Assembly: GCA_963764715.1 (NCBI GenBank)
Contig: CAVXTP010000006.1
Coordinates: forward strand, 384,001-448,000
Reading direction: 5' to 3'
Source of the DNA: an uncultured Acidobacteriota bacterium
GTDB lineage: Bacteria > Acidobacteriota > Thermoanaerobaculia > UBA5066 > Gp7-AA6
DNA length: 64,000 bases
The position numbers and the translations under genes were made by a program. The notes under the pieces were generated by a model. The model did no database searches, had not been told where the DNA came from, and saw only the letters and a list, made by a program, of their open reading frames with translations. Below are positions 30,643-37,875 of this stretch, piece after piece (the first letter of the stretch is position 1; each line of letters starts with the position of its first letter).

Positions 30643-33291
30643 ATGAGTCTGAGTGCGGGAACACGGCTGGGCTCCTACGAGATCCTCGCGCCGATCGGCG
30701 CGGGAGGCATGGGCGAGGTCTACAGGGCGCGGGACGCGAAGCTCGAACGCGACGTTGCCATCAAGGTGCTCCCGGCCCACCTGACCTCGAACACCGACGC
30801 GCTCGGCCGCTTCGAACGCGAGGCCAAGTCGGTCGCGTCGCTGTCCCACCCGAACATTCTCGCCATTCACGACTTCGGGACCGAGGGCGGCGTCACCTAC
30901 GCCGTCATGGAGCTGCTCGAAGGCGAAACGCTACGCTCGAAGCTCGAAGCGGGGGCCCTCTCTCCGAAGCAGGCGGTCGACTTCGCGCAGCAGATCGCCC
31001 GGGGCCTCTCCGCCGCGCATGAGAAAGGCGTGATCCACCGCGACCTGAAGCCTGAAAACGTCTTCGTCGGCCGGGACGGGCACGTGAAGATCCTCGACTT
31101 CGGCCTGGCCAAGCGGATCGAGGCGGCCGCGACGGACGAACAGACGAGCGCCCCGACGGCCACCGGCCTGACGGAGCCCGGCACGGTGATGGGAACCGTC
31201 GGCTACATGTCGCCCGAACAGGTGCGCGGACTTCCGCTCGATCACCGCTCGGACATCTTTTCGTTCGGAGCGATCCTCTACGAGCTCCTGTCGGGCAAGA
31301 AGGCGTTCGCAAGGCCCACGGCCGCCGACACGATGTCGGCGATCCTGAAGGAGGACCCTCCGCAGCTCTCGGGCTCCAGCGCGAACGTCCCGCCCGCCCT
31401 CGAACGGGTGATGCGGCGCTGCCTCGAAAAGGAGCGCGGGAACCGCTTCCACTCGGCCAAAGACCTCGGCTTTGCGCTGGCGGAAGCCTCGGGACCGGCG
31501 CCGAGCTTCGCGGGTCCATCGGTCGCGCCTTCCCGAACGACGCTTCGGAAGGTCCTGGTCGCCGCGGCCGTCGCCGGGCTGGCGCTCGTCGGATTCCTCT
31601 ACTTGCAACGTTCACGGCGGCCCGCCGATGACGCCGTCAAACGGGTGGCCGTCCTTCCTTTCGAGAACCTGGGCGCACCGGACGACGAGTACCTCGCCGA
31701 CGGGATCTCCGACGAGATCCGGGGGAAGCTGACTTCGTTGCCAGGCGTCGCGGTCATCGCACGCGGCAGCTCCAAACCCTACAGGAAGACGACGAAGTCC
31801 CCCGACCAGATCGCGCGCGAGCTCGGCGTGCGCTACCTCCTGACCGCGACCGTCCGCTGGGAGAAGGGCGACGGCGGACAGCGCGTCCACGTCAGCCCCG
31901 AGCTGACCGAGATCTCGGGAACCGGCGCGCCGACGTCCCGCTGGCAGCAATCGTTCGACGCCGTCTGGACCGACATTTTCCAGGTGCAGTCGGAGATCGC
32001 GGCGCGGGTGGCACACGCCCTGGGCCTGGAGCTCGGCTCGGGCGAGGCGAAGCGCCTCTCGGAGAAACCCACGCAGAACCTCGCCGCCTACGATGCATTC
32101 CTCAAGGGCGAGGGCCAGTTCAACATCGGCCTCCAAGCGTCCAATATGCGGCAGGCGCTCGGCTATTACGAGCAGGCCGTCGCTCTGGACCCGGGCTTCG
32201 CCCTGGCGTGGGCGAGGGTCGCGCGGACGGGAGCGTTCCTCTATTCCTGGGCGAGAACGCCCGAGCTCGCGCAACGAACCCGCGAGGCGGCGGAAAAGGC
32301 CATCGCGCTGGCTCCGAACCTGCCGGAGGGACACAGCGCGCTCGGCTCCTACCAGGGGCTCGTCCTCGGCGACATCCGCCAGGCGCTGGAGCAGCACAAC
32401 AAGGCCCGGAGCATGGCGCCCGGAAACGCCGACGCTCTCTTCGCCACCGGGGCCGCCGAGTACGGCCTGGGCCTCTTCGAGGCGTCCATCGGCCACCTTC
32501 GCGAAGCCGAGCGGCTCGATCCCCAAAGCGTGCTCGTCAAGGAACGGCTGGCAGCCTCGCTCGTGGCGCTGCGGCGATATTCCGAGGCGCGCGACATCTA
32601 CGGACGCGGACTCACCGTCTCGCCCAGGAACCTCCGAATGCTGCTCGGCAAGATCAGCACGTACGTCGAGGAGGGAGACCTGGCCGGCGCGCGCGAGGCA
32701 ATCCGAAGGGCTCCGCCGCAGCTCGAGCCCACGTCGATCGTCGCCGCCGTCGCCGTGTCCGGAGACATGGTCTGGATCCTCGAGAAAGACCAGCGCCAGC
32801 TCCTCGAACGGCTGACGCCGAGCGCCTTCGACGACGACCGTGCGGTTTGGGCGCTCACCCTCATGCAGGCCTACGCGCTCGACGGGAACGCCGAGGCCAC
32901 GCGGGCCCACGCGGAGGAAGCCCGAAAGGCGCTCGAGGAGCAGATCGCCACGAGGCTCTCCGAACCACTCCGCCACGTCAGTCTGGGTCTCGCGCTCGCG
33001 CATCTCGGCCGGAAAGAGGAGGCCGTCCGGGAAGGACAGCGCGCCTCGGATCTCGTCTCGGGAGCGGGCACGATCATGGAAGCGTACGTCCGCCATCTGC
33101 GCGCCCGGATCTATCTCCTCGCGGGCGAGCCGGAGAAGGCGCTCGACCAGCTCCAGCCGCTGTCCGCGAACCAGTTCGTCGTCTCCCCCGGGCGCCTGAA
33201 GATCGATCCCGACTTCGATTCTCTGCGCGGCAATCCGCGCTTTCAGAAGCTCGTCGCGTTAAAGCCCGCGCCGGTGGGGACGGGAACCTAG
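30643..33291 (+). CDS. Ser/Thr protein kinase with TM segment, TolB-N-like domain and TPRs
   Basis: GAGGMGEVY, VAIK, HRDLKPEN, DFG, YMSPEQ; VAVLPFENL; TPR helices. Confidence 0.93.
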   Translation: MSLSAGTRLGSYEILAPIGAGGMGEVYRARDAKLERDVAIKVLPAHLTSNTDALGRFEREAKSVASLSHPNILAIHDFGTEGGVTYAVMELLEGETLRSKLEAGALSPKQAVDFAQQIARGLSAAHEKGVIHRDLKPENVFVGRDGHVKILDFGLAKRIEAAATDEQTSAPTATGLTEPGTVMGTVGYMSPEQVRGLPLDHRSDIFSFGAILYELLSGKKAFARPTAADTMSAILKEDPPQLSGSSANVPPALERVMRRCLEKERGNRFHSAKDLGFALAEASGPAPSFAGPSVAPSRTTLRKVLVAAAVAGLALVGFLYLQRSRRPADDAVKRVAVLPFENLGAPDDEYLADGISDEIRGKLTSLPGVAVIARGSSKPYRKTTKSPDQIARELGVRYLLTATVRWEKGDGGQRVHVSPELTEISGTGAPTSRWQQSFDAVWTDIFQVQSEIAARVAHALGLELGSGEAKRLSEKPTQNLAAYDAFLKGEGQFNIGLQASNMRQALGYYEQAVALDPGFALAWARVARTGAFLYSWARTPELAQRTREAAEKAIALAPNLPEGHSALGSYQGLVLGDIRQALEQHNKARSMAPGNADALFATGAAEYGLGLFEASIGHLREAERLDPQSVLVKERLAASLVALRRYSEARDIYGRGLTVSPRNLRMLLGKISTYVEEGDLAGAREAIRRAPPQLEPTSIVAAVAVSGDMVWILEKDQRQLLERLTPSAFDDDRAVWALTLMQAYALDGNAEATRAHAEEARKALEEQIATRLSEPLRHVSLGLALAHLGRKEEAVREGQRASDLVSGAGTIMEAYVRHLRARIYLLAGEPEKALDQLQPLSANQFVVSPGRLKIDPDFDSLRGNPRFQKLVALKPAPVGTGT

Positions 33292-36200
33292 AGACCGAAC
33301 GTCTTGACGAGGAACACCGCCATCTGCCCGCGGGTGTTCGGGTTCCCGGGACAGTAATCGCCGCCTCCGCAGCCCCCGGTGATCTTCTCGGCCGCGAGCT
33401 GCTCGATCCAGTTCGCGAAGAGGCTCGGACAGGCGACATCGCCGAAGACTCCGGTGCACTCGGGAGGCTGGTACGCCGCGCCGTGCCTGGCCTTCAGCAG
33501 GAAGACCGCCATCTGAGCGCGCGTGACCGGGCTCGCCGGACAGTAGTCGCCGCCACCGCATCCGGCCGTGATGCCCTCGGCCGCGAGCTGTTCGATCCAG
33601 TCGGCGAAGAGGCTCGGACAGGGAACGTCTCCGAACACACCTGAACACGGTGGCGGAACGTAGGTCGATCCATGCTCCGACTTCAGGAGAAAGACCGCCA
33701 TCTGCGCGCGCGTAACGGAGGCCTCGGCGCAGTAGCTGCCCCCACCGCATCCGGCCGTGATGCCCCGCCGGAAGATCTCTTCGACGAAGTCGTGGAAAGG
33801 GTCGAGCTGCGGAACATCGAGGAAGTCAGCGAAGTAGGCATCAGGACGTGTCGCCGTCGCGGCACTGAGACCCGGGTTCGTAACCGCTACGTCGTTCAGG
33901 GTGCCGGGTGACAGCGAGGGCGTAAGGAGATAGATGAACGTCGGATCCATAACTATCGGATCCGTTCCGACGGTTCCTCCAACGGCCACCGTCGCGTCCG
34001 ATCCGAAGCCGCCTCCGACGATGTCGATCGCTGCGCCGCCGGAGGCAGGCCCGGAGGTCGGCGTCACTTCATTGACCGCCAGGCCTGCATCGGTCAGCCG
34101 GAAGATCACACCGTCTCCGAAAGGGCCGCCTCCCGCCGTTCCGTACAGAAAACCGTCGTGCGCCTGGATGAGCGCGCGATCGGATGCATTCCGTCGACGC
34201 CGTTGAAGGTGTGAAGAAGGTGGAAGTCGCCCGAGGAATCCAGCCGAAAGCAATCGTACCCCGCGACGTGCTCCCCACCATCGCTCCGTCGTCCCGTATA
34301 GGGCATAGCCGTCTGGAAGGTGGACTCCGAGCAGAGGAGCGGAAGCGCTTTGGCCGTCGGTGCCGTCGAAGCTGTGCAGCGTTTCGAGGTCGTCGCTATC
34401 GACTGGGATCTTGAAGATCGTCCCAAACCCCTCGCTGCCGCCGTACTGCGTCGTGCCGAACAAGATTCCATCCAGGTTGAGGAGGCCTGCCGCGGGACGA
34501 CCGCCGTCAATCTCATCGCCGGGGAAGCTGTATTGCCGCACGATTCCGTCCTCGACGCTCATGCTGAAGACGATCCCCCAACCGGCGTTACCGCCATCGG
34601 AGGTCGTGCCATAGAACTTGCCGTTGACTTCGACGAGATCGCCGTTCGGGTCGGCTCCATTGACCCACGGATCGAAAGGCCACAGCGTGGCGAAATTCCC
34701 CGACGCGTCGATTCGCAATGTACTGTTAGCCATAGGTATAATTTATAAGGGATGGAATGCTCCACGCGCCGTTCAGGCCATAACTGGTCGTGCCGTAGAA
34801 CCAACCGTCGGACGCCTGGATGAGTCCTGAAAGAGTCCAGCCTTCCGTCGCGCTCATGACATGTAGCGTCGTCACACTTGCGTCATCTTCCATCCGAAAG
34901 ATCGTTCCGTATCGGGTGTCACCGACGCCGCTCGTCGTTCCATAGAAGTGCCCGTCCGCGGCCTGCATGAGCGATGGGCTCGTGCCGTCTGCCCCGTTGA
35001 AGCTATGAATCAGACGCACGCCTAAGACATTCGATCAGCCAAAATCAATACGTACGCATTAAGCCGTCGAGTTCGCTCCCCGCTCCCGTCCGGGTCCCGT
35101 CGAAATCGAAGCCGAAAATCGTGCCAAAGTCGTTCGTCCCTCCAAACGCCGTGGTTCCATAGAGGTGACCGTCCGTAGATTGGATAAGCGAACCTGGCAG
35201 CACACCATTCGTCCACGTGAGCTCGTGGAGAGTGGTGACATCGCCAGAGAGGCTCATTTTGAAGACGGCTCCCGCGATGTACGTATAGTCGGCGCCGATC
35301 CGGTCGGCGTCGGTCGTACCGAACAGGTTGCCGTCGGACGCCTCGACGAGGGCGCTCCGAGGGTGAGCGCCGTCGCTTCCCGTGAAGCTGTGCACCGTGG
35401 TCAGGTCTCCAGAGGTCTCGACTTTGAAAACAGTGCCCCAACCGCCCGACCAAGTGTCTCCGCGTGAGGTCGTGCCGTAAAGGCCGCCGTCTGAGGCCTG
35501 GATGAGGGCGGCTTCGGGGTACGCGCCGTCTGCGAGGTTGAAGCTGTGGAGGGAGCTGAATCCTCCTGAGGGATCCACCCGAAACACCGTTCCCAGCTGG
35601 CTGGTCCCGCCCCCAACGGTCGTGCCGTAGAAATTGCCATCGGCGGCCTCCACGAGGGCAGCGACCGGACGGGCTCCGTCCCCGAACTTGAAGCTGTGGA
35701 GCGTGACGACGTGGCTTGCGGAATCCATGGAGAAGACCGAGCCCTCGTCGTACGACCCGCCCCAACTCGTGGTGCCGTAGATCAGGCCGTCAGTGGCCTG
35801 GATGAGTTCGCCCGCAGGCCGCGCGCCGTTCACATACCGATTGAAGTGGTGGAGCGTCGTGAGATCTCCGGAGGTGTCGATCTGGAAGATCGTTCCCACC
35901 TCGTGTGCTCCGCCAGAATTGGTCGTGCCGTAGAACATGCCGTCGGAGGCCTGCATGAGACCGGCGTACGGGTTCTCGCCGTCCGTGCCTGTGAAGCTGT
36001 GGAGCCTGGTGACGTTTCCGAGGAAGTCCATCTTGAAGACCACGCCCAGGTTGTTCGTCCCACCCTTGGATGTCGTCCCATACAAGGTGCCATCGGACCC
36101 TTGGACTAGCCCGGCAATGGGGTTGGCCCCATCGGCGTAGCCGAAGCTATGGACGGAAATCAGGTTCCCCTGGGAATCGACCCTAAAGATCGTGCCGACT

Positions 36201-36460
36201 CCGTTCTTCCCGCCCCCGCACGTCGTGCCGTAGAAGTACCCGTCGTCAGCGTGAATTAGGCTGCTGTTCTGCTTCTCTCCAAGCGGACACGAGTTTCCTG
36301 GGTTTCGAAAGGCGTAGACCAGCTCGTACGTCTCCTGCCCGCGCAACACGGGTGCGACGACTGAGATCGCCAGCGCGATCAAGACAACAGCCCACCCTGT
36401 GAACCCCTTCGCGAGTCCAGGTTCCCGATGAATTGTTCCCATAATGGCCCACCACCGCAT
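33288..36460 (-). CDS. Large beta-propeller repeat (choice-of-anchor GloVer-like) surface protein with IPT/TIG and SLH-like domains; interrupted in this sequence
   Basis: Repeats LIQASDG.LYGTT..GG...GTIF...LHSF across ORFs 35045..36460, 34726..35019, 33288..34733; VTPTSGPASGG; three SLH-like repeats; breaks near 35020-35090, 34725-34760, 34285, 34175. Confidence 0.8.
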
Positions 36461-36576
36461 CGATCCTTACGCCGCACGGCGGGCGGCGTCGTGATGCAAA
36501 CGGATCTTTGTCGAGACTTCGAACGGTCTCAACATCGACTGCTGCGCCTCCGAGGGCGCGGCCGACGTCCGGCCGG

Positions 36577-36939
36577 CTACTTCCCGAGAAGCTTGTTCAG
36601 CTCCTTACGCATGTCATCCACGCTGACGTCGTGGTCCGGCTGTTTCCAGAGGACCTTGCCGTCGGCCGAGCGGATCACCATTCCGTGGTTCTCGAACCCG
36701 AGGGAGCGGACGATCTTCTTGTTCTCTTCGGTGGTGGCGTCGAGGTTCTGTCCGCGGACCCGTCCCTTGTACTCCTGCTCCAACCCGCTCACGGCGGGCT
36801 TGATCCTGGCGCAGATCGGTCAGCCGGGAAGGAAGTAGAAGGTCACCTGCAGGGGCGCCGTCGTCTCCGGCAGACCCGGGGCCCACGCGGCCACGAGAGC
36901 GAAGAGGGCGGCGAAGAAAAACGAGCGTCGAGTCGTCAT
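36577..36939 (-). CDS. Exported thioredoxin-like selenoprotein candidate (UxxC), 120 aa
   Basis: AGGAG RBS, ATG 36939, signal peptide, VTFYFLPG-TGA(36820-36822)-PIC-ARIKPAVSGLEQEYKGRV in frame with ORF 36577..36792; downstream hairpin. Confidence 0.85.
36781..36802 (-). promoter_or_regulatory. Putative bacterial SECIS hairpin
   Basis: mRNA CAAGCCCGC-CGUGA-GCGGGUUG; loop starts 26 nt after the UGA with G at loop position 2. Confidence 0.65.
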
Positions 36940-36978
36940 GCTCAATCTCCTGATTCGGCGGCTGTCCGTGGGTAAAGC

Positions 36979-37875
36979 CTACAGCACGCCGGCGTGCGAA
37001 AGGAACGCCGCGAGGATCCCGGCGGAAACGCCCAGGCAGACGACCCCGCCGATCGCGTAGCGCACGGTGCGGGCGCGAAGCTGGCGCAGGATCGAGTCCG
37101 GATCGCCCTTCATGATCCGCGTGACGTTCGCCCAGTTCGGGTGCGGGACGATGCCGCCGCGGGACTCGGAGTACAGGCCGACCGCGTAGACCCGATCGGC
37201 CTTCCGGATCAGGTCCTCGTGATACTTGCATTCCTCGAGCGGCACTTCGCCTTCCGTGGGATGCCGCTTCTCGCTGCGATAGGCGCCGTCGTCGTCGGTC
37301 CACTGCTTCGCGAGCGTCTTTCGCGCCGCGTCCGGCGTCTCGAAGGACGCCGTCTTCACGTGCTCGGACCAGTGGAAGAGGGCCCGCTTCGCTTCGATGT
37401 CTTCCCTTCCGAAGTCGAACTCGGGGACCGCGAGCAGGCGAAAGCTCCCCGCGGGGGTCGAGATCGTGGACGGCACCAGCGCCACGCCCTCGAAGTACAC
37501 CGCCCGCGTCCGGCGCCGGCCCTGGCCGACGTACAGATAGATCTCGTAGCGGTACGCGAGGCACTCGGTGCCGGTGAGAGGAGAGCGCAGGAGATCGCCG
37601 GCCGCCTCGATCGTTCCGGCGATGCCGGTCCACGTCCCGTCGACCGGCCGCCGCCCGGCGAGACAGCCGGCGAGCGCCGCGCGCTCGCGGACCGGTTTCC
37701 GGATGCTGACCAGGAATCCCAGGCCGATCCAGCCGAAGACCGCGGCGAAGAGCGCCGCGCCGAAGACCTTGCCCGGAGCGAGGCCATGCCGAAGCTGGAG
37801 GAACGCCAGCACTCCACCCAGGATCGCGAGAAATCCCGCGAGCTGGAGAACCAGGCTCCGCGCACACCCCTTCAT
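36979..37875 (-). CDS. Membrane protein with central soluble domain (GIDE-like, tentative)
   Basis: Two N-terminal and one C-terminal TM helices; LRSPLTGTECLAYRYEI; EDLIRKADRVYAVG. Confidence 0.65.
   Translation of the reverse strand: MKGCARSLVLQLAGFLAILGGVLAFLQLRHGLAPGKVFGAALFAAVFGWIGLGFLVSIRKPVRERAALAGCLAGRRPVDGTWTGIAGTIEAAGDLLRSPLTGTECLAYRYEIYLYVGQGRRRTRAVYFEGVALVPSTISTPAGSFRLLAVPEFDFGREDIEAKRALFHWSEHVKTASFETPDAARKTLAKQWTDDDGAYRSEKRHPTEGEVPLEECKYHEDLIRKADRVYAVGLYSESRGGIVPHPNWANVTRIMKGDPDSILRQLRARTVRYAIGGVVCLGVSAGILAAFLSHAGVL

Follow-up and report, generated by a model that had tools for sequence, protein, structure and literature searches.

A UGA-containing gene of an uncultured Acidobacteriota bacterium very probably encodes an exported thioredoxin-fold selenoprotein

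Introduction

What does a bacterium encode where gene callers find two short, unconnected reading frames, separated by a stop codon that falls exactly on the first position of a thioredoxin-like active-site motif? The locus that raises this question lies on the minus strand at positions 36577 to 36939 of a 64,000-nucleotide stretch of DNA (hereafter the window, meaning the whole stretch that was analyzed) from an uncultured member of the Acidobacteriota, class Thermoanaerobaculia (assembly GCA_963764715.1, contig CAVXTP010000006.1, positions 384,001 to 448,000). A preliminary description, made from the letters alone, proposed that the two pieces are one gene for a 120-residue exported selenol redox protein, in which TGA at codon 40 specifies selenocysteine (Sec, U) and a hairpin resembling a selenocysteine insertion sequence (SECIS) follows within the coding region.

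We have followed up this proposal by comparison with relatives in protein databases, genomes and metagenomes. The DNA from 36939 to 36577 very probably encodes a single 120-residue precursor of an exported thioredoxin (Trx)-fold selenoprotein. The comparisons show a single gene, a conserved UGA, the pairing of Sec with Cys among homologs, selection on the hairpin at the RNA level, the presence of Sec machinery and the relationship to thioredoxins; we infer that selenium is incorporated and that the protein is exported, and likewise its export route, the direction in which the redox reaction runs and the kind of substrate. The preliminary description therefore stands as far as it described a single TGA-containing gene and, on comparative grounds, a selenoprotein, and its export and redox role are put forward here as predictions.

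Results

A single 120-codon frame contains one in-frame UGA

With TGA translated as Sec, the minus strand yields one continuous frame from an ATG (36939..36937) to a TAG (36579..36577), in which codon 40 is the sole TGA (Table 1). Both the AGGAG ribosome-binding site and the ATG at 36939 that had been described are present, and the frame runs uninterrupted into the 71-residue fragment of the open reading frame (ORF) track, recovering a single frame of 120 residues. The mechanical ORF list holds only a 41-residue N-terminal piece (36820..36945) and this 71-residue C-terminal piece (36577..36792), which begins at a GTG downstream of the TGA. Around the Sec codon the protein reads ...L-Q-V-T-F-Y-F-L-P-G-U-P-I-C-A-R-I-K-P-A-V-S-G-L-E-Q-E-Y-K-G..., and past the motif the translation continues as ...VTFYFLPG-U-PIC-ARIKPAVSGLEQEYKGRV.... 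Of the 30 long ORFs in the window, 20 end in TGA as their ordinary stop, and a genome-wide reassignment of the codon can therefore be dismissed. A promoter and terminator scan gave nothing useful, and the only RNA run compared (X18) has no contig over the stretch and weighs neither way.

Table 1. Features of the predicted selenoprotein gene (positions in the window)
Feature	Position	Strand	Basis
Shine-Dalgarno-like AGGAG	36947..36951	minus	direct sequence read; 7 nt ahead of the ATG
Complete predicted selenoprotein gene, 120 codons plus TAG	36577..36939	minus	translation with TGA as U; full-length tblastn matches to residues 1-120 elsewhere
Predicted N-terminal export leader, about residues 1-22	36874..36939	minus	T-R-R-S-F-F twin-arginine-like motif; A-P-G/L candidate cleavage site
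In-frame TGA, codon 40, predicted to be read as Sec	36820..36822	minus	translation, homolog loci, assemblies
U-P-I-C putative redox motif, codons 40-43	36811..36822	minus	U40 and C43 invariant in 36/36 U-forms; placed on the Trx CxxC
SECIS-like hairpin, 7-bp stem (36800..36794 / 36788..36782), loop CGUGA (36793..36789)	36782..36800	minus	lies within codons K47-L53
Predicted thioredoxin-fold domain, about residues 29-120	36580..36855	minus	profile-to-PDB match; Atlas model of P0123
Invariant H85-G86 at the cis-proline-loop position	36682..36687	minus	36/36 U-forms, 19/22 Cys forms
Invariant D102-H103 between last strand and C-terminal helix	36631..36636	minus	36/36 U-forms, 12/22 Cys forms

The UGA codon is conserved among relatives

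A word-indexed protein search returned 539 database relatives, the best 120 of which were listed. Among the matches listed, 118 of the 120 are pieces of 68-81 residues that start just past the TGA, as had been expected if standard annotation shortens the protein. These pieces begin with M-S-G-L-E-Q..., or with M-I-C-A-K... where the start codon falls within U-x-x-C itself, and the orphan N-termini exist as separate database entries of 38-40 residues ending in ...Y-Y-L-P-G. One NCBI entry of 71 residues (P0086) carries the name 'hypothetical protein'.

At the DNA level, a tblastn-type genome scan, with one genome per species, found 22 loci in metagenome-assembled genomes (MAGs) of Acidobacteriota/Thermoanaerobaculia and one Chloroflexota MAG. 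TGA occupies the aligned site in 21 of them, the exception (L044) being a broken frame, and a conserved block, L-x-V-T-[YF]-Y-[YF]-L-P-G-U-P-I-C-A-[KR]-I-K-P-A-V-S-G-L-E, spans the codon. Furthermore, a profile (A2) built from natural full-length homologs only was scanned over 401 genomes spread across the phylum. Its 21 strong matches (E <= 1e-35) contain the in-frame TGA without exception, no Cys form being among them, and another 14 weak matches (E about 1e-6) have no internal TGA and look like generic thioredoxins. The family is thus found in about 5% of the sampled Acidobacteriota genomes, in the Sec form each time. Three unpublished genomes are part of these counts, namely G058 and the selA-positive U-form genomes G161 and G033; the U-form count without them is 19.

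After removal of duplicates, 36 distinct U-form genes were aligned. The rows dropped were L044 (frame broken upstream of the site), L045 (downstream frameshift), L055 and L068 (duplicates of L028 and L037), L058 (the window itself), and L053 and L065 (from G161 and G033). The frame-broken copies L044 and L045 are either assembly errors of long-read MAGs or real pseudogenes. A sister clade from organisms of low G+C content (37-47%) has TGA at the site in all nine metagenome loci (L085-L093), and the comparison places the Sec form well beyond the Acidobacteriota.

Contigs of runs X1, X3 and X4 that lie over the window show no difference at 36820..36822, and the X3 contig (467 nt, covering 36570..36918) keeps the TGA while differing at 29 positions. 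That the TGA arose as a sequencing error or as a private nonsense mutation can be excluded, since it recurs in related loci (21 of 22 in the genome scan, 21 of 21 strong matches) and in these independent assemblies. Conservation also extends upstream of the codon, where the block L-x-V-T-Y-Y-Y-L-P-G is kept in the homologs.

Cysteine occupies the Sec position in more distant homologs

An exhaustive HMMER search of 1.84 billion representatives returned 143 relatives, including full-length proteins of 117-141 residues with 30-53% identity. In the alignment, 22 full-length homologs carry C-x-x-C in exactly the U-x-x-C columns, which supplies the Cys homologs at codon 40 that a selenoprotein assignment calls for. 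A few relatives are redox-dead, with A, D, S or I at the site. Two database proteins (P0154 and P0165) read P-G-W-P-x-C there. Because the metagenome-contig DNA for this 'W' clade has TGA at the codon in nine of nine related loci, the W entries are probably a gene-calling artefact in which TGA was translated as Trp under another genetic code, and behind them lies a low-GC lipoprotein clade that belongs to this selenoprotein family.

A SECIS-like hairpin lies downstream of the UGA

The mRNA could fold into a hairpin, AGCCCGC-CGUGA-GCGGGUU, with a 7-bp stem and a 5-nt loop. The loop starts 26 nt past the A of the UGA and has G at its second position, followed by U; the minimum free energy (MFE) of the 34-nt stretch around the hairpin is -12.3 kcal/mol. 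The bacterial SECIS consensus has 3-9 nt in the apical loop and 4-16 bp in the upper stem, with an MFE of <= -7.5 kcal/mol, a G in the first two loop positions that is usually followed by G or U, and 16-37 nt between the UGA and the loop (PMC13188914). The window hairpin lies within every one of these limits, in loop, stem, G, spacing and MFE, and the preliminary description of a hairpin with its loop 26 nt downstream and G at position 2 thus agrees with the published model.

The codons that build the hairpin hardly vary. In 20 genes, P48 to G52 are encoded by CCC in 19 of 20 and by GCC, GTG, AGC and GGG in 20 of 20 each, whereas at other conserved residues with four- or sixfold degeneracy two to five codons are in use per site. 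Outside the hairpin, the gene uses GGG and AGC only as minority codons or not at all.

The stem changes between clades and stays paired. It reads GCCCGC/GCGGGY in the main clade, GCCCAU/AUGGGC in a Chloroflexota relative (L046), GCCUGU/ACAGGC in a Chloroflexota W-U-G-S-C thioredoxin (L084), and GACCAU/AUGGUC, GGCCAU/AUGGCC or AACCAU/AUGGUU in the low-GC clade, and in all four clades the loop start C-G-U-G and the 26-nt spacing are kept. We measured covariation in an ungapped alignment of 47 sequences from these four clades, with 500 shuffles. Paired cells amount to 94.9%, against 19-43% in slid registers, and five of the seven stem pairs show changes on both sides. There are 34 double-change cells compared with 9.6 +/- 2.3 in the shuffles, and the covariation score is 0.430 compared with 0.234, each value being reached by none of the 500 shuffles. 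With the low-GC clade left out (38 sequences), the signal is weaker, with four pairs, and is reached by 4 of 500 shuffles.

The Cys forms provide a negative control. The hairpin peptide P-A-V-S-G-L is present in 36 of 36 U-forms and identical in none of the 22 Cys forms (mean identity 0.29), and L083, the Cys-form partner of L084, has no equivalent hairpin. This pair came from a scan of Chloroflexota in which 5 of 401 genomes matched, only L084 being useful, with L083 as its Cys partner. Together, the invariance at synonymous sites, the covariation and the Cys-form control indicate that the hairpin is under selection at the RNA level. A SECIS within the coding region would then dictate protein sequence, P-A-V-S-G-L being fixed in U-forms and free in Cys forms.

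L084 (genome G755) is a separate and more canonical lipoprotein thioredoxin with the motif A-P-W-U-G-S-C, and L083 (genome G530) is its Cys twin, A-P-W-C-G-S-C. The L084 hairpin shares the CGUGA loop and the 26-nt spacing with the window gene. The peptide K-P-A-V-S-G-L is also kept in P0002, a database homolog with Ser at the Sec position.

The genome carries the Sec machinery and further selenoprotein genes

The window genome (4.36 Mb, 96.8% complete) encodes selA (460 bits), selB (311 bits) and selD (378 bits), all over the curated cut-offs, and a tRNA-Sec with anticodon tca (ARAGORN); the selABCD genes on which the preliminary description would depend were therefore all found. As a positive control, FdhA (L047, G000:C18:35907-41918) has one in-frame TGA. 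A second, molybdopterin-oxidoreductase-like gene (L048, G000:C11:66003-69566) also has an in-frame TGA, in the context ...C-N-R-T-U-H-A-P-S.... Each of the two has a 7-bp hairpin with the loop GGUCU, 18 nt past the UGA. Comparison thus indicates that the genome holds at least three selenoprotein genes, and since the FdhA and L048 elements share the build of the window hairpin, the same SelB would already read such elements. Elsewhere, selA is present in 8 of 9 other U-form genomes reached through the loci (split in one), and selB in 4 of 5. In G006, selA lies in two pieces (G006:C2:2723844-2724991).

The protein is predicted to adopt a thioredoxin fold

Over positions 27-118, the family profile and PDB thioredoxin chains align end to end (E 8.8e-9 to 1e-5), and this alignment places U/C-x-x-C on the C-x-x-C of Trx; together with the reading frame, it confirms that the TGA at codon 40 sits at the first Cys of the motif. 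PF00085 matches 8 of 32 family members at E <= 0.01 (best 8.9e-13). For P0123, a natural Cys homolog with 47% identity to the window protein, the ESM Atlas model has a pTM of 0.72 and only thioredoxins as structural neighbours (TM 0.58-0.71). The family profile and this model of the Cys homolog indicate that the fold is thioredoxin-like, with CxxC/UxxC at the start of helix 1.

Besides the hairpin peptide, the residues invariant in the 36 U-forms are U40, C43, N65, D67, L80-G81-F82, H85-G86, R90, G94, D102-H103 and V105. The active site of thioredoxins is lined by a cis-proline loop, whose conserved cis-proline faces the active site, and by a second loop. In the profile-to-PDB alignment, G86 aligns with the Pro of 'SVP' in chain 8xyw_A and the D-H pair aligns with the second of these loops.

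The leaders suggest export

The window protein starts with M-T-T-R-R-S-F-F-F. The signal peptide of the preliminary description is thus present as an N-terminal leader, and its character needs revision, since it looks twin-arginine-like (T-R-R-x-F-F) and not plainly hydrophobic. An N-terminal hydrophobic leader is found in 36 of 36 U-forms. Read by eye, 18 of the 36 leaders carry [T/N]-R-R-x-hydrophobic-hydrophobic near the start; a regular expression for the twin-arginine motif flagged 15, missing four for which the start had been set at an in-frame Met further upstream and including the ambiguous L059. Eight U-form leaders have a lipobox and the remainder are plain signal-like. In the low-GC sister clade, all eight loci with the N-terminus present have lipoprotein-like leaders. 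Taken as a whole, the leaders suggest that the protein is exported, and the motif makes the twin-arginine (Tat) route a candidate in the window lineage.

The gene neighbourhood is shared by close relatives

The upstream neighbour on the same strand (36979..37875) encodes a 298-residue membrane protein with N-terminal hydrophobic segments and no Pfam match, and ends 37 nt before the ATG of the selenoprotein gene. It adjoins that gene only in the four closest relatives (79-85% identity), and the window neighbours as a group (the 298-residue membrane protein, a DAO-type oxidoreductase, a PLD-like gene and repeat proteins) are common only to these four. Downstream, at 33288..36460 (minus strand), lie two large genes for proteins of 471 and 481 residues. 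The first is full of repeats ending in ...Y-G-T-T and has no Pfam match; the second has the same ...Y-G-T-T repeats plus TIG and three SLH-like C-terminal repeats. Both are probably cell-surface proteins. An all-against-all clustering of flanking ORFs gave no other cluster in more than five loci and was noisy from shadow ORFs in the high-G+C DNA.

Discussion

We hold with high confidence that the window gene encodes a selenoprotein. In the mechanism that we propose, UGA at codon 40 would be decoded as Sec by SelB carrying Sec-tRNA(Sec), SelB being recruited by the coding-sequence hairpin with its CGUGA loop 26 nt past the UGA. The leader, twin-arginine-like in the window lineage and of the lipoprotein type in others, would export the protein from the cytoplasm. 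Once outside, Sec40, placed where the first helix begins, would be the attacking nucleophile, and Cys43 would be its resolving partner, presumably through a selenenylsulfide with Sec40. The protein may thus act as a thiol/selenol-disulfide oxidoreductase of the cell envelope, a plain function toward which we lean with some reserve.

A number of observations weigh against parts of this assignment. The local fold is no more stable than that of shuffled sequences (z = 0.18, with 114 of 200 shuffles at least as stable). Folding energy was consequently set aside as evidence for the hairpin, and because it does not rise above shuffles at the 70% G+C of the window DNA at this locus, the case for a non-chance hairpin rests on comparison. 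Within that comparison, the double changes mostly separate a few clades, so the cells are not independent and reflect few events. An Rfam scan of 36500..37000 at E <= 10 gave two chance matches to eukaryotic RNAs and no SECIS family. The window protein stays below all Pfam and NCBIfam cut-offs, scoring 16.7 bits with PF00085 (cut-off 23.5 bits) and 17.6 with Thioredoxin_4 PF13462 (cut-off 23.2), and it lacks the thioredoxin cis-proline, having Gly86 at that position and His85 before it. The Tat hidden Markov models TIGR01409 and PF10518 match neither the window leader nor three natural N-terminal fragments at E <= 10, these leaders being short. P0002, a full-length protein of 125 residues and 60% identity, has Ser at the Sec position (L-P-P-S-P-I-C), which may be a TCA variant or an error of TGA.

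The distribution of the Sec machinery also has gaps. G001, the genome of the intact U-form L025, has no selA and no selB, with selD and tRNA-Sec present, and G090, the 99% complete genome of the intact U-form L050, has no selA, with a tRNA-Sec at 76.2 bits; these absences are probably assembly gaps. The co-occurrence of selA with the family (20 of the 21 U-form genomes of the phylum sample) was set aside, since selA is too common in the background (301 of 401) to discriminate and lends weak support. Finally, across the family loci examined there is no conserved operon partner that would point to a substrate. With no recurring neighbour, inference of function from operons was dropped, and the function proposed here is deduced from the protein itself.

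Three other explanations of the locus have to be set against a Sec-containing oxidoreductase. The TGA could be a true stop, leaving a 39-residue leader peptide and a 71-residue protein, or the mark of a nonsense-mutated pseudogene of a Cys-type thioredoxin. Gene callers do annotate it so, as the short database relatives and P0086 illustrate, TGA is the commonest stop in the window, and selA is not seen in two U-form genomes. However, a nonsense mutation would not persist at one codon in 36 genes from separate species with both flanks conserved, nor would it be expected to align with the first Cys of CxxC in 22 homologs or to be followed by a covarying hairpin at a fixed distance, and the 71-residue piece by itself would include neither the active site nor the first strand of the thioredoxin fold. 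We regard a true stop as extremely improbable. Alternatively, near-cognate decoding could read the UGA as Cys or Trp, the hairpin acting only as a stimulator of read-through. The computed data do not tell which residue is inserted, and the sister-clade entries P0154 and P0165 have W at the site, although all nine related loci have TGA there and the entries are likely calling artefacts, as described above. What makes such read-through very unlikely is the complete Sec machinery with benchmark selenoproteins in the same genome, a hairpin that fits the SelB-type model, its small apical loop containing G-U and lying within the permitted distance (PMC13188914), and the position of the codon at the catalytic Cys of a redox motif, a classic place for Sec.

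The remaining alternative accepts the selenoprotein and questions its function. The absent cis-proline and the invariant His-Gly and Asp-His are a departure from canonical thioredoxins that poses a mechanistic question, and because of this departure we considered that Sec40, Cys43, His85 and Asp102-His103 form a metal or metalloid site in an envelope chaperone, sensor or detoxifier. Sco-type thioredoxin-fold copper proteins offer a comparison for such a site. Both pairs are invariant in every U-form, with His-Gly in place of the cis-proline loop and Asp-His aligned with the second active-site loop, and the strong members of the phylum sample are all Sec forms, as would suit an essential selenium chemistry. 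On the other hand, the closeness of these residues is deduced from topology only, no metal-handling genes recur beside the gene, the Asp-His pair is present in little over half of the Cys forms, and UxxC in a Trx fold is the standard redox arrangement. A metal site therefore seems improbable to us, if well short of negligible. We give similarly little weight to a broader proposal, namely a distinct family of envelope Trx-fold proteins that exchanged the cis-proline for His-Gly, gained Asp-His, use a selenium-containing site of Sec40, Cys43 and two histidines to bind or transform a soft metal or metalloid, or for another non-disulfide substrate, and are exported folded via Tat in one lineage. 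Such a family would be obligately selenium-dependent in Acidobacteriota, since in the 401-genome sample every one of the 21 strong members is a Sec form.

The family is systematically mis-annotated, and no Pfam or NCBIfam model covers it. With a curated model, hundreds of annotations could be put right, and the selenoproteome of soil Acidobacteriota would gain a selenoprotein with predicted export.

Comparison with known selenoproteins

Trx-fold proteins with UxxC are the commonest kind of bacterial selenoprotein. An inventory of 119 prokaryotic selenoprotein families contains numerous Trx-fold families with UxxC, such as Trx, thiol:disulfide interchange protein, thiol-disulfide isomerase-like, DsbA-/DsbG-like, redoxin, SaoT, HUIPC and VPGUxxT (PMC13188914), and the GOS survey grouped distant subfamilies as 'Trx-like 1/2/3' (PMC2398784). 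The literature search found no description of the present family and none pairing Thermoanaerobaculia with selenocysteine; BSepDB or supplementary tables may list it as 'Trx-like'. In our view, the family is a new subfamily within a well-known kind of protein, namely exported thioredoxin-fold selenoproteins with UxxC, and it may already be counted under a generic Trx-like label.

With the bacterial UxxC Trx selenoproteins (PF00085, PF13098, cd02966 and GOS 'Trx-like 1/2/3'), the window protein shares a Trx-like fold, Sec as the first residue of UxxC, abundant Cys homologs, a SECIS directly downstream in the coding region and a presumed redox role. It differs from them in scoring below all Pfam cut-offs, in having His-Gly for the cis-proline and an extra Asp-His, and in its export leader. 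The NCBIfam families SaoT (NF040730), HUIPC (NF047660), VPGUxxT (NF041383) and GOS_C (NF045500) are likewise small Trx-like proteins with Sec in or beside a CxxC-type motif and are typically truncated in databases. None of these four models matches the window protein at E <= 1. Among 24 natural homologs, SaoT is touched by two (E = 7e-4, far under its cut-off) and the other three models by none. The motifs differ as well, G-U-P-I-C in the window protein compared with H-U-I-P-C in NF047660 and V-P-G-U-x-x-T in NF041383.

The DsbA-/DsbG-like selenoproteins resemble the window protein in their Trx fold, their CxxC/UxxC motif and their location, being exported or lipid-anchored and acting on envelope substrates, as is predicted for the window protein. 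The TlpA/ResA/CcmG class comprises periplasmic thioredoxin-fold reductases and isomerases. Unlike the DsbA, DsbG, TlpA, ResA and CcmG types, the window protein is much smaller, with about 98 mature residues, and has no inserted helical domain and no cis-proline, and in the loci examined its gene shows no linkage to cytochrome-maturation or Dsb genes.

A counterpart of the hairpin lies in the same genome. Like the FdhA SECIS, the window hairpin has a 7-bp G+C-rich stem and a 5-nt apical loop with G-U, and it lies within the coding region, immediately after the UGA. The two elements differ in loop and distance, GGUCU at 18 nt past the UGA in FdhA and CGUGA at 26 nt in the window gene, and both distances fall within the 16-37 nt given in the bacterial SECIS consensus (PMC13188914).

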